In this document: positions 16,918-26,319 of the stretch, in pieces | How the letters are laid out: each line of letters starts with the position of its first letter | Numbering within the stretch: the stretch's first letter is position 1 | Source: Candidatus Poribacteria bacterium | GTDB lineage: Bacteria; Poribacteria; WGA-4E; WGA-3G | Length of the DNA stretch: 64,000 bases | Reading direction: 5' to 3' | Assembly (NCBI GenBank): GCA_022827625.1 | Contig: JAJEIE010000027.1 | Span: 174,827-238,826 of the forward strand | Program-made: the position numbers and the translations under genes | The notes under the pieces: generated by a model | Database searches by the model: none | Told to the model about the DNA's origin: nothing | The model's input: the letters and a program-made list of their open reading frames with translations, nothing else

Positions 16918-18075
16918 CTATTGTGACCAGAGAGGGATCAATATTTTTGTGAGTTCTGCGAGGCTTTCCAAATTGTGTGCTGGCAGAAAATAATCGACAT
17001 ACGGCAACGCCGTGCGGATACCTCGACAGATCGGTTGATAGCCGTCGCTGCCGAGCAACGGATTGAGCCAAATCAACCGATAGGCGTGCCGATGCAACAT
17101 CTCCATTGAATAACGCAGCACCTCTACATCGCCACGATCCCAACCGTCGCTGATGAGGATGACCACCGTGCGATACGCCGAGAAAGAGGGCGCGAACTGC
17201 CGATAGAATTCCAACAGACTTTCACCAATTTTTGTGCCACCCGACCAGTCCGGCACAACATCTGCCACTTCATTCAAACCCTCTGCTAACCCTTTCCGAC
17301 GGAGGAGTCCCGTAATGTCCGTCAGATGCGTGCTGAAAACCGCAACCTCCACTTCCTTTAGTTCTTTCTGCATGCCGTATATGAATTGAATAAGAAATTT
17401 AGCGTAGCAGTCCATTGACCCGCTGACATCGCAGAGGAGCAGGATCTTCGTCTTCTTGATTTTTTGTTGTTTCCGAATTAATTCGAGCGGTTCACCGCCG
17501 TGCGAGAGACTCTTTCGCCAACTCCGCCGGAAGTCTATAATTTTACCTTTTTTCCCGACAACCTTTCGACGGCTCAGTCTTGTCGCCAGGATTGCCGCTA
17601 ATTTCGCAACGATTTCCCGTGCTTTCTCCATATCCTCTGTCGTGAACTCGCTAAAATCCTTTCGACTCAGAACTTCTTCTACGCTATAAGCCGTTGAATC
17701 GTCTTCTTCGCCTTCCGCGTTTTCTTCTGTTTCGGAGTCCAACCACTGTTCGAGTATATCCTGTTCGTCGCCTGTATCGGAGAGGTCTTGGAGACTCGAC
17801 GGTTCAGATGTTTCGTTTTCTGAGTCAACGGCTTCAAATTCCGTGCGCGGGTATCGCCAAAACAGATTGAAGGCGAGATCAAATGTTTCCCGGTCAGTGT
17901 CTTGAGAGATAAGATTTGTCCGCGCCGTATGATAAAACGCGTCCCGATCACCGATATCTATGAGTTCAACGCTTTGGCACCAACTGAGTTGATTGGTGGT
18001 CGTTACATTGACACCCATCTGTCGGAGCAAGGCGCAGAAATCTGTGATTTGTTGGAGTAGAGTTTGTTCAGTCAT
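16918..18075 (-). CDS. CoxE-family vWA domain protein
   Basis: Has 'LLLCDVSGSMD', 'ILISDGWDRGD', 'LIWLNPLLG' and an acidic linker. It overlaps the upstream protease gene by 8 nt. Confidence 0.7.
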   Translation of the reverse strand: MTEQTLLQQITDFCALLRQMGVNVTTTNQLSWCQSVELIDIGDRDAFYHTARTNLISQDTDRETFDLAFNLFWRYPRTEFEAVDSENETSEPSSLQDLSDTGDEQDILEQWLDSETEENAEGEEDDSTAYSVEEVLSRKDFSEFTTEDMEKAREIVAKLAAILATRLSRRKVVGKKGKIIDFRRSWRKSLSHGGEPLELIRKQQKIKKTKILLLCDVSGSMDCYAKFLIQFIYGMQKELKEVEVAVFSTHLTDITGLLRRKGLAEGLNEVADVVPDWSGGTKIGESLLEFYRQFAPSFSAYRTVVILISDGWDRGDVEVLRYSMEMLHRHAYRLIWLNPLLGSDGYQPICRGIRTALPYVDYFLPAHNLESLAELTKILIPLWSQ

Positions 18076-18442
18076 TTGTCAAATTTTCAATTGTTACCGT
18101 GCCCTCTGTTACAATATCTAATATCAGACGATTTCCATAGAGCAGGGACATACCTATCAACGGTTTGCCATCTGTCCGTAGTGTCTGCACGATGCGTTTT
18201 TCGTCTCGCCATACGACCACCGCGAGATACATATCTAAGTCTACTTGGCTTCCATCACCGAGAATTATACGGAGTTCACCAACTCGCGGAAGTCCGAGAA
18301 TCTCAATCAAATCGCCCGGTAGCATTAACTCCCCTGTGAAGCCGGTATCAACGACCACTTCAATTTTCTGTGGATGCGCTACACCAGTTACTTCCAATTC
18401 AATAGTAGCTTCTTGATTATTAACAATTTTTCCTGTGATCAT
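18068..18442 (-). CDS. Retropepsin-like (clan AA) aspartic protease, single domain
   Basis: Has an active-site motif 'VVDTGFTGEL' and is the size of a retroviral-type protease monomer. Confidence 0.65.
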   Translation of the reverse strand: MITGKIVNNQEATIELEVTGVAHPQKIEVVVDTGFTGELMLPGDLIEILGLPRVGELRIILGDGSQVDLDMYLAVVVWRDEKRIVQTLRTDGKPLIGMSLLYGNRLILDIVTEGTVTIENLTND

Positions 18443-18451
18443 TTTAGGGGT

Positions 18452-19036
18452 TTAGGGTCTCCATTTGTTTACAGGAGTTCCATAGGTGCCCCTAAAGCCG
18501 AGTTGATATGCTGTCTGTTGCCCAATTCGTACAAGGTAAATTACGGCATTCGGATGTTTTGAAAGAAGGCGGTTTATGGCTGCTGTGCCTTGAGTATCAA
18601 TTTCATAATTTTCTGTCTCAATGTCAATTGCCAAGAATTTTCCGTTGTGGCGAGGCTCAACTTTGCTCTGAAGTTTTTGGTATGCTGCTTCGCCGCGAGT
18701 GCTAACGGTTCCGGAGGGATAGTCCGTGAGGACCGAAAGCCTAAAACCCAGTGGATTCGCGAGACGACATCCGATTCGCGTACAGTAAATCACGGAATTG
18801 GGATGCTTCGCACGGAGTCGAGATGCAGCAACAAAGTCCTTATCGTCAATTTCATAATCACCCGTGTCAATATCAACCACCCAAAATTTTCCGTTATGAT
18901 ATGGTTCAACTTTGCTCCGCTGTTGCTGATATATTGCATCGCCACGGGCAACGATGGTTTCAGGTGTATAATCTGAGTATGGCATTAGGATGCTCCCAAA
19001 GTTTCGGAGTTTATTTTTTTTGCCTAATTTGTTCAA
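18452..19036 (-). CDS. Hypothetical protein made of two tandem copies of an approximately 85-aa domain
   Basis: The internal repeats are 'VEPYHNGKFWVVDIDTGDYEIDDKD...HPNSVIYCTRIG' and 'VEPRHNGKFLAIDIETENYEIDTQG...HPNAVIYLVRIG'. Confidence 0.5.
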   Translation of the reverse strand: MNKLGKKNKLRNFGSILMPYSDYTPETIVARGDAIYQQQRSKVEPYHNGKFWVVDIDTGDYEIDDKDFVAASRLRAKHPNSVIYCTRIGCRLANPLGFRLSVLTDYPSGTVSTRGEAAYQKLQSKVEPRHNGKFLAIDIETENYEIDTQGTAAINRLLSKHPNAVIYLVRIGQQTAYQLGFRGTYGTPVNKWRP

Positions 19037-19044
19037 GTCCTTTC

Positions 19045-19974
19045 CTATTTTTCTAAGTAAGCGATGAACGCATCCAATTCTGATGAGACGTTGTCGAATA
19101 CCGCGCGGACCCGTTTTGCGTTTTCTACCGTTTCTTTGAGGGACAGTTCAAAATGATAGACATGCTCAAACCTGTAGCGGAATTTTAAAAACGGTACCAG
19201 ATCTATAACACTTTTCTGAGAAATCAGAGGCGGACGCAATGGTCTCGCTTCTGCTATTTGTGCTAATAGATCTTTATGTGTGCCTCGCCCCCTCATGACA
19301 TCCATATCAATTTGTCGTGCGATACGCCGGAAAATGCTTTCCAACCGAGCATAGAAACGAAAAAGGTATAAGTCAAGTGTGGTTTTGCAAGCATCCTTGT
19401 ATTTGGTAGGTGCTGTGTCCATTTTTAGCAAAGTTTGTGTGATTTTTCTGACGATCTGTTCTATATCTGCGAGATTTGCGGTGATATGTTGACGGAATTT
19501 CCGCTTATGTGCTTCAGCGGTTAATTTGCTTCTCATCACAAAGTCAGACCGCCAGTGAAAATTCGCTTCCCCATTTTGAATGGGAATGGCTTGCCCCTGA
19601 ATCTGTTCGCGAAATCGTCCTTTCGCGCTATGAAAGTTGATGAGATCAATTTTGAACTCTCGGCTAAAGCCAACAGTTTCCCCTATGGCGCGAAAATACT
19701 TCTCGGATGGGATACCCCAGACAGCAATATCAATATCTGACCCTTTGGAGAACCAATCCCGCCCTGCGAGCGACCCGAACACAGCGACCTGCGTTGCGTC
19801 AAAATCTTCGTAAAGCATGACAGCAACTTGATATGCTGTTTTCCAAGCGCGTCGTAGCAGTGCTTCATCCACTTTCCGATTCTGGAAGTGCTGATCAAGT
19901 CGGCAGCGGTATTCCGCTAATTCTTCAGGCGATAAATCTTTTGCTGTGCGCTGAGTTTCTGAGGATTGAGGCAT
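19045..19974 (-). CDS. Fused minimal nucleotidyltransferase (MNT) + HEPN domain protein (single-chain HepT/MntA-like)
   Basis: N-terminal 'VAVFGSLAGRDWFSKGSDIDIAVW' is the GS...DxD nucleotidyltransferase motif. C-terminal 'FRYRFEHVY' resembles the HEPN Rx4HxY motif. Confidence 0.65.
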   Translation of the reverse strand: MPQSSETQRTAKDLSPEELAEYRCRLDQHFQNRKVDEALLRRAWKTAYQVAVMLYEDFDATQVAVFGSLAGRDWFSKGSDIDIAVWGIPSEKYFRAIGETVGFSREFKIDLINFHSAKGRFREQIQGQAIPIQNGEANFHWRSDFVMRSKLTAEAHKRKFRQHITANLADIEQIVRKITQTLLKMDTAPTKYKDACKTTLDLYLFRFYARLESIFRRIARQIDMDVMRGRGTHKDLLAQIAEARPLRPPLISQKSVIDLVPFLKFRYRFEHVYHFELSLKETVENAKRVRAVFDNVSSELDAFIAYLEK

Positions 19975-20022
19975 ATCCTAATCTCCTTAGAGAATAGGAT
20001 AGCATGAAATGGTTTGGCGTGC

Positions 20023-20063
20023 AATAAAAAAGAGACGGGATAGCCTTTCGGCTTTCCCGTCTC
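20023..20063 (-). terminator. Rho-independent terminator for the minus-strand HTH-S1 gene
   Basis: A 9-bp perfect stem GAGACGGGA...TCCCGTCTC with an inner AGCC-tttc-GGCT, followed on the minus strand by TTTTTTATT. Confidence 0.6.
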
Positions 20064-20129: not shown

Positions 20130-21980
20130 TCAAAATCGCTTACCGGAGTCTACCACAGTAGAGAGATATAATGTTATTTGTTGTTTCTCAACATTAATAT
20201 CGGAGATGATTGTCTCAATTTCATCACCTTCCATCAGAGACTCTGGCGGAGACATCCGAATAAGACCGTTAATGCCCGGTTCAATCTCAACAAAAACACC
20301 GAAAGTGGTTACGTTTATGATGGGACCTGTAATCTTCGTGCCAACTGGATACTTTTGTTCCAGAAGTTTCCATGGATTTTGCTGCAAATATTTGTAACCT
20401 AACGAGATACGTTTGTCACTTTTTGAAACTTCAAGCACTACGGCGTTGATTTCATCATCTTGATTGAAGTTTGATGGAATTATGCCGTTTGGTTGCCACG
20501 ATAGCTCCGACTTATGAATCATTCCTGTAATACCTTCTTCAAGGTTAAGAAATACTCCATAATCTGTGATGCTGGTAACAATACCTGACACTACTGAACC
20601 AATTGGATATTTATCTTCAACATCACTGTCTTCCCACGGATTGGGCTTTAGCCTCAAATCAATACGCGTTTTCCCTTTTTCTGTTTCTTGATCTATATTG
20701 ATAATTTTGACTCTAACCTCGTCACCAATCGAAACTATATCCTCCGGCCTATTTATGAGTTTCCATGTCAATTCAGGGATACGGATTAATCCCTCAACCC
20801 CACCAAGATCTACAAATGCTCCAAAACGAGCGGTGCTTTTCACTTTTCCATTTACCCATTGTCCAACTTTAAGCCTGCTAAAAGCCTCTGATAGTTCTTG
20901 TGTAGGTTCGAATTTGGGTTGTTTATCGGACGTATCAGCAGTTTTTCTCTCGTCACTAGGTTCCGGAAAAGATCCTACCACTATGTTAGACATATCAGCG
21001 AGTTGTTCCTCGGCAATGATCTTCTCAGTTTCTATTATCGCTAACCGTTTTTCGCTTGCCACTAGTTGTTCCTCGAGCATGGTTACCTTTGTCTGTGCTG
21101 TCTCTAATTCATTTGACATCACCTCAAGGCGTTCCTCTCTGTTATCATAGGAAAGTTCATCGAGAATAGTTTTAACTTCATGTTTTTCATCTGACGCGTT
21201 GATTTTGTCGAGTACGTCAGATATATGAAATAACAGCTTTAGAGTAGTGTCACGTTTTGTGTCTTTTGTCCCTGGATGTGCCCAGTGAATTCTACCATCT
21301 TTTATCACTTCTGCTTCATTCCAGATTGCTTTTCTATTGTTAAATTTCTTAGAAAAGAAAGCGTTAGATTCCCAATATTTTCTGATAAAAGCTGGGAAAT
21401 TTTGAATATCTATTGCAGCTTCAATTTCGTTGTGGATCTCACGGGCAAGCTTTAGATCGTCAGGTGCCACTTCTTTAATTAAATCCTCTAGGGATCTGTT
21501 GTGATTCTTCTCCAGCGATTCAATGATGAATCTGCGCATAGCATCACGGTATATAGTGTATGCCTTATAAATTGCATCTCGGTTAGGATATTTTGTAGTA
21601 ATCATATTTAAAACCTCCATGTAGGCAAAGTTTTTATTGAAATGTTCTCTATTGAGTTTGGGTTTTCTGAGAATGGTTGATTGATCATTGACTATATTTT
21701 CGTTATTCATAATTTCCTCCGTTGCTAAGCTAAGAAGTATCTCAAGTGTTGTATGCAAAGCATCCGCGATGCTTTGCATCTGAAATATATCAGGAATCGC
21801 ATCACCTTTTTCAAACATAGCGATCCGCTGTTGCGTCACGCCAATTTCTTTCCCAAGTTCTGCTTGTGTCATACGCAACTGACGCCGCCGCTTTTTAATG
21901 TTCGATGCGACGTCCTCTATTTTTTTTTCGCTGACAATTTCTTTTGTTCTTGGCATTTGATTCCTTATTAATGTCCACAA
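20130..21980 (-). CDS. XRE-family HTH + helical (possible HEPN-like, 'RIHWAH') + coiled-coil + three S1 RNA-binding domains; unusual architecture
   Basis: N-terminal 'LRMTQAELGKEIGVTQQRIAMFEKG' is an HTH. Three S1-like units follow: 'GQWVNGKVKSTARFGAFVDLGG', 'GSVVSGIVTSITDYGVFLNL' and 'GTKITGPIINVTTFGVFVEI'. The gene is AT-rich relative to the flanking genes. Confidence 0.6.
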   Translation of the reverse strand: MWTLIRNQMPRTKEIVSEKKIEDVASNIKKRRRQLRMTQAELGKEIGVTQQRIAMFEKGDAIPDIFQMQSIADALHTTLEILLSLATEEIMNNENIVNDQSTILRKPKLNREHFNKNFAYMEVLNMITTKYPNRDAIYKAYTIYRDAMRRFIIESLEKNHNRSLEDLIKEVAPDDLKLAREIHNEIEAAIDIQNFPAFIRKYWESNAFFSKKFNNRKAIWNEAEVIKDGRIHWAHPGTKDTKRDTTLKLLFHISDVLDKINASDEKHEVKTILDELSYDNREERLEVMSNELETAQTKVTMLEEQLVASEKRLAIIETEKIIAEEQLADMSNIVVGSFPEPSDERKTADTSDKQPKFEPTQELSEAFSRLKVGQWVNGKVKSTARFGAFVDLGGVEGLIRIPELTWKLINRPEDIVSIGDEVRVKIINIDQETEKGKTRIDLRLKPNPWEDSDVEDKYPIGSVVSGIVTSITDYGVFLNLEEGITGMIHKSELSWQPNGIIPSNFNQDDEINAVVLEVSKSDKRISLGYKYLQQNPWKLLEQKYPVGTKITGPIINVTTFGVFVEIEPGINGLIRMSPPESLMEGDEIETIISDINVEKQQITLYLSTVVDSGKRF

Positions 21981-22063
21981 GCGGTTGGGATTCCCACTTG
22001 CGGATAGTGGTTTTATCCAATACTCAATATATTATACAACAATTAATTGTTTAATGCAAATTA

Positions 22064-22107
22064 AAAACGCAGTTTTTTGACGAACCTTCACCAAAAAATT
22101 GCGTTTT
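22064..22107 (-). promoter_or_regulatory. Near-perfect 15-bp inverted repeat (AAAACGCAGTTTTTT ... AAAAAATTGCGTTTT) in the AT-rich region upstream of the HTH-S1 gene
   Basis: Read directly from the sequence. It is a candidate operator for the HTH protein and/or a bidirectional terminator. Confidence 0.4.
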
Positions 22108-22288
22108 CTTTACAATTTTATTATTTTTTTAGTTTTCTGAGTTATAAATACACTAAAACTATGTAAAAAATCTCGCGCTTAATGGCATGATACGCGAACT
22201 AACAACTATTCCACCGGATCCAATCCCAACGACCGTAGTGAGTTCGAGGCGCGGATTTGAGGTGCCGTATGGAAAGATGGGTCTATGC

Positions 22289-22591
22289 TCATAGGGTAGA
22301 TAGCAACACTTTTTCAACCGCAATAGGCAGTTGGAGAGGATAAAAACGGCTAACTGTATATGCGTAATCTTTGCCGCTTTCATCTATAACGCGAATATAG
22401 CCGTGGGTCGTTGCTTCATCATCAGGAACGACACGATACACTTTCCCAACCTCAAGAGAGGCTGGATGTCCTTTGTTGTTAAGGCACAGGCCAAATTGAG
22501 GGAATTGGTTGTTTTTTGTGTCCATCTTTATGCTACTGCCGCGACTGATTGTTTCGATCTGCTTGATTTCTCCGATAATTTCAAAATCCAC
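22289..22591 (-). CDS. Small hypothetical protein (possibly SH3-like beta)
   Basis: A 100-aa ORF with the motif 'KVYRVVPDDEATTHGYIRVIDESGKDYAYTVSRF'. No family is assigned. Confidence 0.4.
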   Translation of the reverse strand: MDFEIIGEIKQIETISRGSSIKMDTKNNQFPQFGLCLNNKGHPASLEVGKVYRVVPDDEATTHGYIRVIDESGKDYAYTVSRFYPLQLPIAVEKVLLSTL

Positions 22592-23191: not shown

Positions 23192-23428
23192 ATGAAAGCA
23201 TTTGAATGTGAATATTGCAGTGGCGAGATTCGCCAAAAGAAAGTTACCGTCGATCATTGGTATGAAGGCAAGTTGGTAATTATTAAAGATGTTCCCGTAG
23301 GGGTCTGCCAAGAGTGCGGTCAGCGATATTATGCAGCTGCAACACTGGATAGACTTGATATAATGGCACAGAATAGTGATGCTGCGCCGGAAAGAATGTC
23401 CGCCCCTGTCATGGTGATGGGGCCGTAA
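23192..23428 (+). CDS. YgiT/MqsA-type zinc-ribbon protein (antitoxin-like N-domain only)
   Basis: Has 'CEYCSGE...' and 'VCQECGQRYY', a CxxC...CxxC spacing characteristic of the YgiT-type zinc finger. Confidence 0.55.
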   Translation: MKAFECEYCSGEIRQKKVTVDHWYEGKLVIIKDVPVGVCQECGQRYYAAATLDRLDIMAQNSDAAPERMSAPVMVMGP

Positions 23429-23456: not shown

Positions 23457-25388
23457 TTAGGGCCAGAAGTTATACATCGGTTGCTGTGTCACAACACTGA
23501 TAAGGCTCCAGACACCACCTACCGTAAAATCACCTAACATCAAACCGATCGCAAACATCACCAACTGCTGCGAGGCACGGGGTCCTCCAATCTTCAGGAC
23601 GCTCCACTTGATAATCGAACTCACCAACATACAGCTCCACAGATACCGCATACCCCAATCGCTGGAGACAACGAACCCAATCGGATGGAACGGCCACCAG
23701 AAGAAACGCGCCCGCATAAACATCAAGAGGGTCGAAAAGAGCAAGCCAAACACAATGCCGCCAGTGGCATAGAAATTCGGCTCTGTCGGGTAATAGAGCC
23801 AGCCTTGGAGTCCGTTAAAGACACGTCCACCGAACCCTGTTGACCAACCGCTGCCCCCGCTCATATTCAACGCGCCATAAGTATAGAAGATATAAGCGAT
23901 AACCGCGAATACCATCACGGCGGCAAATGCTGAAACGCCTAATAGTGCGAAGAACAGTCGCCTCGGTGCGATGCCGGAACGTTCCGAGAGTTTGAAACCT
24001 TCTAACTGATGTGGCATCGGGTTGCTTGTGTAACTCCGATTGAACCACCGGTAGAGCGTCAAGGCAACGAGGTTGTTCGTCCCTAACATCCGTGTCCCGA
24101 AACCGTCAACGAGGATGTGATGGTTCGGCATATTTTCCATTGCATGCACTGGAAACCCTTGTTCCGCACGCATCCGTGTCAGCACCAAAACAATGATGAA
24201 ATAGATTGTGAAGAACAGCGGAATTAGCCAAAATGACATGCCGAGCCGTCTCGAAAAAATAAAGAGTATTGCCAATCCGCCGATGATGCCCCACAGCGCG
24301 TATCTATATGGAATCGGTTCGTCAGCGTCTTCGCCTGTGCCGCGACGCGCGATGCGGAGCACCCCACGAAAATGGCGTAGGTTCAGTACTAATACAGAGA
24401 TGAAAATCCCGATCGCCGCACCGAAGCACTGTCGATTGATGTATGGAAAACCGGGTAGGCTCGACAGGCCGACCGCACTCGTCATTACCAACTGCGCTTT
24501 GTAGAAGAAAAAGAAGAACCAACTGGAGAACGAAAGGTCTAACGGCATCAGGAGTCCAAGTCCGATGACGAATGGGTAATAGGACATACTGATACCCCCA
24601 ATAGCGTTCCACGGCTTTTCTGTGAACAGATGCCCGAACCCGCGCCAACCCCCGATCCGCTTGATGGGTAAGGTGGGAAGTGTCGGATACAAGAAACTGA
24701 GGCCATTGAGGATGGCTATAGACGCTGCAATTCCGAAACCGAGCCAGGTGATGCGGTGTGAGAACAGTGATTTTGTGTTATGCGTAACGTGAAAGGCGAT
24801 CTGCGTGATTGGATAGGCGAGGCGTTCGCGTTCGACCCACTGTTTCCGTAGAATGACGTTAATACACAACATCACGAGGACCAGAACCGTCATGAATCCC
24901 GCCCAGGAGAGCGTTGGCACTAACCATGCACCGAGAATCTCCATCGTGGAGAGGTTAGATTCACCTCTATAGTACCCCACCAAGACCTTCGGATCGTCTA
25001 CGAGGAGCCATCTCGGAAGATGGTCCCAGAACAGCTGCTTCCATTCATTTTCGGGAGTTGCGAACCAGAAAGCGTGCCCGACAGTTGTGACGAGGATCGT
25101 CATCAGCGTGATGGACGGGAAAGCGCACGCTGTGCTAAGTAAGATGTATATCGTGAGGAGTTCGGCGTCGGTGAATAAACGCCGACGAGCGGTGAAATTG
25201 AGGAGGGTAAAGGCAAATACGACGAAAACGACGTTGTAGAAGGGGACCGCGTACGTGTTCAGCGCGTAACCCACGAGTCCGACTTCGCCCGCGATGATCC
25301 AATAGAAATTAAACGGAATCAGCACGAGTGTAATGGCGATAGATTTCCATGTGACACCGTGTGATTTTGGGCGTTTATCTTCTCTCAT
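23457..25388 (-). CDS. Large polytopic integral membrane protein of unknown function (at least 12 predicted TM segments)
   Basis: Hydrophobic segments run throughout the 643 aa. Its start overlaps the stop of the upstream MNT-HEPN gene by 14 nt, indicating an operon. Confidence 0.6.
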   Translation of the reverse strand: MREDKRPKSHGVTWKSIAITLVLIPFNFYWIIAGEVGLVGYALNTYAVPFYNVVFVVFAFTLLNFTARRRLFTDAELLTIYILLSTACAFPSITLMTILVTTVGHAFWFATPENEWKQLFWDHLPRWLLVDDPKVLVGYYRGESNLSTMEILGAWLVPTLSWAGFMTVLVLVMLCINVILRKQWVERERLAYPITQIAFHVTHNTKSLFSHRITWLGFGIAASIAILNGLSFLYPTLPTLPIKRIGGWRGFGHLFTEKPWNAIGGISMSYYPFVIGLGLLMPLDLSFSSWFFFFFYKAQLVMTSAVGLSSLPGFPYINRQCFGAAIGIFISVLVLNLRHFRGVLRIARRGTGEDADEPIPYRYALWGIIGGLAILFIFSRRLGMSFWLIPLFFTIYFIIVLVLTRMRAEQGFPVHAMENMPNHHILVDGFGTRMLGTNNLVALTLYRWFNRSYTSNPMPHQLEGFKLSERSGIAPRRLFFALLGVSAFAAVMVFAVIAYIFYTYGALNMSGGSGWSTGFGGRVFNGLQGWLYYPTEPNFYATGGIVFGLLFSTLLMFMRARFFWWPFHPIGFVVSSDWGMRYLWSCMLVSSIIKWSVLKIGGPRASQQLVMFAIGLMLGDFTVGGVWSLISVVTQQPMYNFWP

Positions 25389-26319
25389 CTGACTCGTGGG
25401 TTTCGGCTAAAAAAGCGATAAACGTGTCTAATTCTTCAGAAACCGCTGTGAATAGTTCCGTGATTGACTTCGCATGTTCTTTGGCTTTTTCGTAAATCAA
25501 TTCAGTGCCATAGATGTTGTTAACCTTATGACGGAACCTGAGAAGTTGCCTTAATCTCTGCTGGGTCCCTTCGGAAATGACAGGTGGACGTTCTGGGCGA
25601 CCGTCTGTCATTTGTGCCAGCAAATCGGTATGCCACCGCTCACCCTGAGGCAAGTATTTATCAATTTCATTAGCAATCCGCTCGAAGATTCTTTCTATGC
25701 CGCTGTAGACCTCAGCGAGTTTTTTGGCAGTTAACTCTTCAAAAAATTTTCTGTGGTGAGGCGTGGCTACTTCAATTTCTTGCAAGAGTTCCATGATGCT
25801 TCCAATAGTCCGGTCTATTTTTGTACGTTCATCAGCGATACGTTGAATAAGTTCGTCACGATTCACTGTGTAAGCTTCTCCGTTTTCTATACCCGATGCG
25901 TTCACTAATGTGAGAATGTCCGTCCTCGCTTTATCAATAAGGATAGCTTGGCTTAGAATCCGCTCACGGAATAAACTGTTAATGGATTTAAAATTGATAA
26001 TATCTATCTTAAACTCAGAACTCAAGCCTTTTGTCTCCCAGAGCGCGTCCAGGCATTTGTTATATGAGACCCCCCAAACAACGATATCAATGTCTGAGTT
26101 TTGGGTGAACCGTTTCGGTTCAGTGAGGGATCCGAAGACGGCAACTTTCGTGGCGCCAAAGTCTCGATAAAGTACAGTGGCGAGACGACGCGCCGTCTTC
26201 CATGCGCGTTGGAGCAGCTCTTTATCGACCTGACGGTTTTCCCATTGGCGTTTGAGGTTTTCTCTGCATTTCGCGAGTTCTGATGGAGACATTCCACTCG
26301 TCGTGGTTTCGCGACGCAT
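25375..26319 (-). CDS. Fused nucleotidyltransferase + HEPN protein, a paralog of 19045-19974
   Basis: Has 'VAVFGSLTEPKRFTQNSDIDIVVW' and a C-terminal 'LRQLLRFRHKVNNIY'. The N-terminal 'LLQRAWKTA' is alignable with the paralog's 'LLRRAWKTA'. Confidence 0.65.
   Translation of the reverse strand: MRRETTTSGMSPSELAKCRENLKRQWENRQVDKELLQRAWKTARRLATVLYRDFGATKVAVFGSLTEPKRFTQNSDIDIVVWGVSYNKCLDALWETKGLSSEFKIDIINFKSINSLFRERILSQAILIDKARTDILTLVNASGIENGEAYTVNRDELIQRIADERTKIDRTIGSIMELLQEIEVATPHHRKFFEELTAKKLAEVYSGIERIFERIANEIDKYLPQGERWHTDLLAQMTDGRPERPPVISEGTQQRLRQLLRFRHKVNNIYGTELIYEKAKEHAKSITELFTAVSEELDTFIAFLAETHESDERR

Follow-up and report, generated by a model that had tools for sequence, protein, structure and literature searches.

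We analyzed a 64,000-nucleotide stretch of DNA from a Candidatus Poribacteria bacterium (contig JAJEIE010000027.1 of assembly GCA_022827625.1, positions 174,827 to 238,826 of the forward strand), referred to here as the window. It carries a minus-strand gene whose product joins an XRE-type helix-turn-helix (HTH), a HEPN domain, a coiled coil, and three S1 RNA-binding domains. An initial annotation, made from the sequence alone, had singled out this gene for its unusual architecture. The open reading frame (ORF) and the parts it described are all present, namely the XRE HTH, the helical middle, the coiled coil, the three S1 domains, the terminator, and the upstream inverted repeat. The full combination occurs in only two protein clusters among 5.8 billion. 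The annotation had also set the protein apart from ribosomal S1, Tex, CvfB, and RNase E/G, and this distinction holds: the cut-offs for ribosomal protein S1 (rpsA) are missed widely and there are no Tex or RNase E matches.

The ORF is real and occupies positions 20130 to 21980 of the minus strand, encoding 616 amino acids (aa) if read from the TTG at 21980. We favor the ATG at 21956 as the start, giving a protein of 608 aa, because database gene calls and an AAGGA Shine-Dalgarno sequence 6-10 nt before this ATG agree. Indeed, the gene call in a public assembly (P0001) starts at this ATG, and its product is 608 aa long and 100% identical to the window protein. Residue numbers follow the 616-aa ORF with the TTG start throughout; compared proteins and loci carry P and L numbers. 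The features of the gene are as follows.

20130 to 21956, minus strand: coding sequence of the HTH-HEPN-coiled coil-3xS1 protein (database gene call P0001, AAGGA)
21738 to 21899, minus strand: XRE-type HTH, aa 28-81 (Pfam HTH_3; repressor-type HTH matches in PHROG and PADLOC)
21606 to 21737, minus strand: linker, aa 82-125; its final ~28 codons and the untranslated leader of the HTH-less relative in L002 are homologous
21603 to 21618, minus strand: internal GGAGG (21614-21618) and the ATG of M126 (21603-21605), read from the sequence; a putative start
21141 to 21605, minus strand: HEPN domain of the Swt1/Abi2 clade, aa 126-280
21276 to 21293, minus strand: Rx4H motif R230-I-H-W-A-H235, the predicted catalytic dyad (homolog conservation)
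20979 to 21140, minus strand: leucine-zipper-like coiled coil, aa 281-334, a predicted dimerization element (heptads; AlphaFold2 (AF2) helix)
20880 to 20978, minus strand: acidic disordered linker, aa ~335-367, poorly conserved (predicted local distance difference test (pLDDT) score <50; 43% aa identity to P0002)
20661 to 20879, minus strand: S1 domain 1, aa 368-440
20385 to 20615, minus strand: S1 domain 2, aa 456-532
20151 to 20357, minus strand: S1 domain 3, aa 542-610

The gene had been assigned to an AT-rich island. The AT-richness is clear, with a GC content of 0.39-0.40 at 20-23 kb against about 0.48 elsewhere in the window. The word island fits less well: the chromosomal position of the gene is conserved and syntenic, with no obvious sign of a mobile insertion.

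The HEPN domain and the S1 triplet

HEPN RNases are metal-independent endoribonucleases that form dimers with a composite active site. The middle domain of the window protein is a HEPN domain of the Swt1/Abi2 clade, in which the Rx4H dyad is preserved. The sequence DGRIHWAHPG, previously read as HEPN-like, is present, and R230 and H235 are invariant in 17/17 close homologs, as are W233, A234, and P236. The consensus of the wider family is RNxxAHPG, in which the His is invariant and the Arg is found in at least 90% of 143 representatives. In the subfamily of the window protein, the Asn after the Arg has been lost, turning RNxxAH into RxxWAH. The AF2 model of the domain has a pLDDT of 91.6 and a predicted template modeling score (pTM) of 0.86. 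The domain is all-alpha, and its fold was scored as a HEPN fold resembling that of solved members. Neither profile gave a sequence-level link to solved structures, and a Foldseek search against the PDB returned no significant match.

How large is the family of this domain? A full-length search returned mostly S1 proteins, yet the close family was visible. Exhaustive HMMER searching with a domain profile returned 551 representatives at E<=1e-3, including 111 at E<=1e-30. Only this search revealed the 551-member family, because a word-indexed search with the middle domain gave just 12 additional proteins. The HEPN domain is nearly always N-terminal in these relatives, which are 130-1133 aa long. 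Pfam HEPN_Swt1 (PF18731) was matched by 42 of 87 longer relatives recovered with the window domain profile (best E 1e-12); the profile matches listed all had E<=3.3e-26. Behind the same HEPN module, relatives carry alternative C-termini that include Mrr_N, DUF4268, a DUF499 AAA+ ATPase, UDG, LRR, a winged HTH, a helicase, and two S1 domains. Judged by established comparative genomics (PMC3710099), these swapped C-termini suggest the pattern of conflict systems in which an effector is joined to a variable targeting or recognition module. The Abi2/Swt1 clade is chiefly tied to defense (PMC3710099).

The relatives with two S1 domains (P0133, P0134, P0153, and P0273, at L011 and L017) are shorter proteins with the same HEPN domain. 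A ParE toxin gene adjoins the relative at L011, and the one at L017 lies in a setting of DUF6785 and an MNT-HepT array that resembles the window.

The coiled coil follows directly on the HEPN domain. The heptad pattern noted in the initial annotation runs in clean register through aa 285-334, with L285, L292, V299, L306, L313, K320, L327, and V334 at the 'a' positions (about eight heptads), and AF2 predicts a single long helix spanning 281-333. Dimerization is favored because the coiled coil adjoins the HEPN domain.

The three S1 repeats are equally clear. Pfam S1 (PF00575) matches in three stretches, above its cut-off, with 142.6 bits and an E-value of 5e-42, and AF2 models the three domains at pLDDT 85-95 as beta-rich, as an OB fold would be. 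The nearest relatives of the triplet are 840-920-aa proteins carrying six S1 domains. Residues 365-577 of the window protein are collinear with residues 361-571 (repeats 3-5) of one such rpsA-like protein, P0107, at 56% identity, as opposed to about 40% for other S1 proteins. Repeats 3-5 are the mRNA-binding repeats of ribosomal S1. The gene for P0107 adjoins metK and ahcY, and the metagenome assembly that contains it also holds one of the HEPN-S1 loci. We infer that a ribosomal-S1-like gene, in this lineage or one related to it, was probably the source from which the S1 triplet was captured.

The window protein is nonetheless not a ribosomal S1, because it misses the cut-offs of all NCBIfam rpsA equivalogs; the best match scores 257.9 bits against 524 and covers only model positions 210-458 of 580. 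Unlike ribosomal S1, it has only three repeats, lacks the N-terminal ones, and is fused to HEPN and HTH domains. We therefore rejected ribosomal S1 and other housekeeping S1 proteins as identities, as the protein falls short of the rpsA cut-offs and has counterparts of repeats 3-5 only. The initial annotation had named, as the outcome that would count against its reading, a middle domain without a nuclease fold in a protein that clusters with housekeeping S1 proteins and shows conserved synteny. The gene does show conserved synteny, and its S1 part is nearest to ribosomal-S1-like proteins, but the middle domain has the HEPN fold.

The ~490-aa core, composed of the HEPN domain, the coiled coil, and the S1 triplet, forms a family that is specific to one lineage and tied to Candidatus Poribacteria. 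A pattern-limited scan for the middle domain with one genome per species found 5 loci in 185,579 species genomes. Four of the five loci are labeled Candidatus Poribacteria and the fifth comes from a metagenome-assembled genome; L005 was taken from the poribacterial chromosome OZ242381.1. The form with three S1 domains amounts to about 20 clusters among 5.8 billion.

The HTH addition, the promoter-like region, and a recombination junction

The N-terminal HTH had been placed within the first 60 residues. The domain itself is clear, with 47.3 bits for Pfam HTH_3 (PF01381) against a cut-off of 23 (E 2e-12) and repressor-type HTH matches from PHROG and PADLOC, but it lies at aa 28-81. Only P0001 and P0002 join an HTH, a HEPN domain, and three S1 domains, P0002 being 82% identical to the window protein. 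The fusion is no assembly artifact because at least four assemblies contain it. The HTH is missing from about 90% of the subfamily: about 15 other clusters, with proteins of roughly 490 aa, begin at the residue that corresponds to M126 of the window protein.

The ~490-aa core acquired the XRE HTH recently, at its N-terminus, together with about 75 nt of 5' untranslated region (5'-UTR). When aa 9-125 served as the query, one more protein came up, P0276 (L018), whose sequence after the HTH is unrelated. The two HTH regions share 75% identity across about 96 aa, and the genes also have about 75 nt of 5'-UTR in common. Since leader and HTH are conserved together ahead of the unrelated P0276 sequence, the pair behaves as a portable N-terminal cassette.

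The junction left by this addition can still be read. At L002, an HTH-less locus, the 84 nt before the start codon align with the linker DNA of the window at 82.5% nucleotide identity (143-nt alignment). Read in frame, the L002 leader gives SRKPKLRREYHNTDFIYTEVLN where the window has LRKPKLNREHFNKNFAYMEVLN, and stop codons precede the L002 remnant. Thus, what is linker in the window is 5'-leader in its relative. The fused ORF still has a GGAGG 8 nt ahead of the M126 ATG, at which all HTH-less members start. Because this GGAGG-ATG is retained, the window gene may also give rise to an HTH-less isoform from the internal start. The HTH might instead have come from a separate upstream gene in relatives, and this was unsupported: the genes upstream of HTH-less relatives, which encode a DnaQ-like protein of 336-367 aa, an unknown 323-aa protein, and small ORFs, are unrelated.

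The coding sequence is itself a mosaic. Compared with the P0002 locus (L009), the upstream DNA, the HTH, and the HEPN domain are 94-97% identical, with a synonymous divergence (dS) of 0.09, whereas the coiled coil, the linker, and the S1 domains are 66-83% identical, with a dS of 0.60. This abrupt change in divergence points to a recombination junction at the HEPN/coiled-coil boundary (~21100, aa 285-290). Both halves are under purifying selection (omega 0.41 for HTH/HEPN and 0.26 for the S1 half). Diversifying selection on the S1 half was rejected on the latter value, and the difference in dS between the halves points to recombination.

The gene is flanked by the following elements.

20022 to 20063, minus strand: intrinsic terminator, a GC-rich hairpin with 14-bp arms (20032-20063) and the U-run UUUUUUAUU (free energy dG -25.3 kcal/mol, z -6.6)
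21974 to 22004, minus strand: 5'-UTR hairpin common to the window and the P0276 locus (L018 ~275-349), with a z of only -2.4
22031 to 22060, minus strand: promoter-like TTTGCA-18-TATAAT (10/12 consensus matches)
22038 to 22051, unstranded: perfect 14-bp palindrome AACAATT/AATTGTT, AACAATTAATTGTT, in the -35/-10 spacer (sequence reading)
22064 to 22107, unstranded: inverted repeat with 21-nt arms, ending 4 nt upstream of the -35 (arms 86% complementary)

The gene thus has its own terminator, as had been annotated, and the inverted repeat that was proposed as its operator exists. The half-site of this repeat is commoner in the window than in any of 100 shuffles. As RNA, the repeat folds into a hairpin (dG -21 kcal/mol, z -4.4) that is followed by UUUUUAAUUU. 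Judged by sequence and position, the 14-bp palindrome is the best candidate operator for the HTH, better than the 21-nt repeat. Both palindromes are kept in L009/L010, along with everything else in that block. The idea of an operator that moves with the HTH cassette was unsupported, L018 having only the 5'-UTR and the HTH coding part in common with the window. A tRNA or tmRNA fragment upstream (around 22190-22290) was also considered, and neither ARAGORN nor Rfam found anything.

Chromosomal setting and proposed function

On the minus strand, from 29021 to 14581, the window carries genes for an SDR, an SRAP protein, an E1 dehydrogenase, an MNT-HepT fusion, and DUF6785, then a variable segment, the HTH-HEPN-S1 gene, a second MNT-HepT fusion, two small genes, VWA_CoxE, Zn-ADH, and a cyclase-like gene. 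The HTH-HEPN-S1 gene sits at a conserved chromosomal site, since this order is collinear with that of relatives. The segment just upstream of it varies by genome and holds a DnaQ-like 340-aa protein, a 2-oxoglutarate oxygenase and an unknown protein, UvrD-like fragments, small ORFs, or Uma2. No constant immediate partner gene was found at the compared loci. The downstream neighbor, a conserved one, is the following gene.

19045 to 19974, minus strand: fused MNT nucleotidyltransferase and HepT-like HEPN, 309 aa, behind the terminator

The number of fused MNT-HepT genes downstream ranges from none to four tandem copies across relatives. The fusions consist of an MNT-type nucleotidyltransferase (Polbeta) and a HepT-like_2 HEPN and are ~300-315 aa long. 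The other fusion of the window lies at 25375-26319 (minus strand), beyond DUF6785 and at a distance from the HEPN-S1 gene. Up to four paralogs stand in tandem at L003 (9620-11480), L013 (5277-8295), and L017 (9317-13152). Together the copies suggest that fused type VII toxin-antitoxin-like proteins have expanded in this lineage.

How might the parts of the HTH-HEPN-S1 protein work together? We favor, with moderate confidence, a modular HEPN endoribonuclease that would be dimerized by its coiled coil, capture single-stranded RNA with its S1 triplet, act in a stress or anti-invader role, and be repressed by its own HTH. By pairing two HEPN domains, the coiled coil would create the kind of composite active site that characterizes HEPN RNases. 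Single-stranded RNA would be held by the S1 triplet, in the way that ribosomal S1 binds mRNA, and passed to the Rx4H site of the HEPN domain. The result would be an S1-guided effector that cleaves mRNA or other single-stranded RNA in stress or anti-invader responses, encoded in a stress or conflict island. Meanwhile, the HTH would bind a palindrome at its own promoter, either the 14-bp AACAATTAATTGTT, the 21-nt repeat, or both, and keep a potentially toxic RNase at a low level. A more elaborate version is speculative, and we would be surprised if it proved right in full. It pictures a single-chain, self-repressing RNase that mimics ribosomal S1, competing with the ribosome for A/U-rich leaders and cutting host or phage initiation regions. 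Two isoforms, one full-length and one started at M126, would heterodimerize via the coiled coil, and promoter occupancy would report the level of the nuclease.

Several observations weigh against an active, self-repressing HEPN effector. The match to PF18731 over aa 141-260 is sub-threshold (23.5 bits against a cut-off of 27.5, E 7e-5), and the loss of the Asn might alter or abolish catalysis. One family member, P0019, has no coiled coil. No antitoxin or immunity gene is consistently adjacent at the compared loci, which is unusual for a toxic HEPN RNase, and PADLOC recognized only the HTH in the window protein. Between 19900 and 23300, scanned at E<=1, neither the abiF-motif noncoding RNA RF03085 nor any other Rfam family reached its gathering score. 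As for autoregulation, promoter-like matches in the region are no more numerous than in shuffles. The 14-bp palindrome is unique in the window and of weak significance, a match with <=2 mismatches arising in 34/100 shuffles. Because its RNA hairpin is followed by UUUUUAAUUU, the 22064-22107 repeat may terminate the upstream 100-aa ORF, serve as an operator, or do both. Neither palindrome lies upstream of P0276 in L018, although that locus carries the same HTH. Finally, inheritance looks vertical, at a conserved locus and under purifying selection, which also fits housekeeping RNA metabolism.

Could the protein, then, be a housekeeping or regulatory RNA-processing factor? It would be a lineage-specific poribacterial maturation or turnover enzyme, or an RNA chaperone, to which the HTH adds transcriptional feedback. 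Its analogs would then be RNases with S1 domains, such as RNase E/G, RNase R, and PNPase, and not the effectors of conflict systems. Its occurrence in the same position and gene order in several genomes with metabolic genes on its flanks, the purifying selection, the lack of a constant antitoxin-like partner, the derivation of the S1 module from a ribosomal-S1-like protein, and the absence of any PADLOC defense model beyond the HTH would all suit such a factor. We nevertheless regard it as unlikely, though it deserves serious attention. A housekeeping enzyme would hardly be so rare (about 20 3xS1 clusters among 5.8 billion, and 5 loci in the pattern-limited scan of 185,579 species genomes), and the gene lies in the only variable, AT-rich segment of its locus, among arrays of MNT-HepT paralogs. 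Moreover, the same HEPN module has been shuffled onto many C-termini, alleles have recombined within the gene, and the clade is chiefly defense-linked (PMC3710099).

Very improbable, in our view, is an RNA-sensing transcription factor whose HEPN and S1 domains sense invader or stress RNA and shift operator occupancy, controlling the gene and perhaps its MNT-HepT neighbor. A bona fide XRE HTH with repressor-type relatives, the palindromes at the promoter, and the loss of the Asn from RNxxAH would agree with it. However, the strict invariance of R230 and H235 argues for retained catalysis, the core function cannot depend on DNA binding because about 90% of the subfamily has no HTH, and a strong terminator stands between the gene and the downstream MNT-HepT. 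That terminator also separates the partners of a proposed multi-gene HEPN/MNT system, in which the fused MNT-HepT would regulate HEPN-S1, for example by nucleotidylylation as MntA does on HepT in type VII systems, and the pair would be the functional unit. MNT-HepT is directly downstream in the window, L002, L003, and L013, is about 2 kb off in L017, is often in tandem, and gives a weak NCBIfam MntA match. We give such a unit only a slim chance: the two genes no longer adjoin in L012 and L015/L016, each MNT-HepT protein is a toxin-antitoxin-like fusion complete in itself, a second copy lies upstream of DUF6785 and away from the gene, and co-occurrence may be plain vertical synteny in one lineage.

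Relation to known systems and neighboring genes

The HEPN effector that we favor touches several known systems and coincides with none of them. It is a member of the Swt1/Abi2 (AbiD/AbiF) clade by fold and motif, yet it falls below the Pfam cut-off and has lost the Asn. It differs from AbiF systems, with no Pfam match to Abi_2 in the window protein and no abiF-motif RNA. RNase E/G, RNase II/R, PNPase, and Tex likewise place an S1 module that binds single-stranded RNA on a nuclease or nuclease-like core, and Tex/YhgF (HTH, YqgF-like, and S1 domains) also has an HTH. However, the catalytic domains are unrelated, and outside the S1 part none of their Pfam or NCBIfam models is matched above cut-off. 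With HepT/MNT (type VII) and XRE-regulated toxin-antitoxin systems the protein shares a potentially toxic HEPN RNase, an XRE HTH of the typical autoregulatory kind, and co-location with MNT-HepT. It differs from them in holding HTH and HEPN in one chain, in having no conserved separate antitoxin, and in its HEPN domain, which is of the Swt1 and not the HepT type. A type VII system comprises a small HepT and a cognate adjacent MNT in one operon, whereas the MNT-HepT neighbor is self-contained and lies behind a terminator.

Has such a combination been described before? The Swt1 passages of the 2013 census by Anantharaman et al. (PMC3710099) list fusions of Swt1 to PIN, an AAA+ ATPase (DUF499), Zn-ribbon/dsRBD/NACHT, aegerolysin, transmembrane helices, and helicases. 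Neither HEPN with S1 nor XRE with HEPN and S1 appears in these passages or was returned by full-text literature searches. The nearest parallel in the literature is an OST-HTH with multiple S1 effector modules in other conflict systems (PMC8195603).

Why does this protein matter? It represents an undescribed HEPN RNase architecture with an RNA-targeting module apparently borrowed from ribosomal S1, to which two variants add a fused DNA-binding, putatively autoregulatory cassette. If active, it would be a HEPN nuclease that gains substrate selection from S1 rather than from guide RNAs (Cas13), CARF sensors (Csm6), or antitoxins. Moreover, its traceable fusion junction and intragenic mosaic offer a clean case study in the assembly of multi-domain effectors. 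The novelty lies in this rare combination and its legible assembly history; every module is known, and the mechanism is a predictable combination. Sponge symbionts are known for large defense repertoires. Practical impact is modest for now, because the family appears confined to uncultivated sponge symbionts.

Some neighboring genes deserve mention in their own right. The 336-367-aa protein is encoded directly upstream of the HTH-less HEPN-S1 genes at L002 (6721-7809), L004 (3120-4130), and L005 (6823-7926). It belongs to no Pfam family, carries the DnaQ-like motif 'VGFNQLQFDYKIL', and gives a weak PHROG match to a DNA polymerase exonuclease subunit. The window is without this protein and has an unrelated 100-aa ORF (22289-22591) at that position.

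On the other side of the locus, 18452-19036 (minus strand) encodes a 194-aa protein composed of two tandem ~90-aa repeats (…YHNGKFWVVDIDTGDYEIDD… / …RHNGKFLAIDIETENYEIDT…), which found no match in Pfam, NCBIfam, PADLOC, or PHROGs. Directly after it, 18068-18442 (minus strand) encodes a clan AA (retropepsin-like) aspartic protease (TIGR03698). The equivalent position of L003 holds an unannotated 183-aa ORF that is similar in size to the 194-aa protein. Adjoining DUF6785 on the opposite strand, at 23192-23428 (plus strand), is a small ORF of 78 aa with a YgiT/MqsA-type zinc finger, which is kept at L002 (5466-5705). It does not match the MqsA HTH-domain model and may be a truncated antitoxin-like gene.

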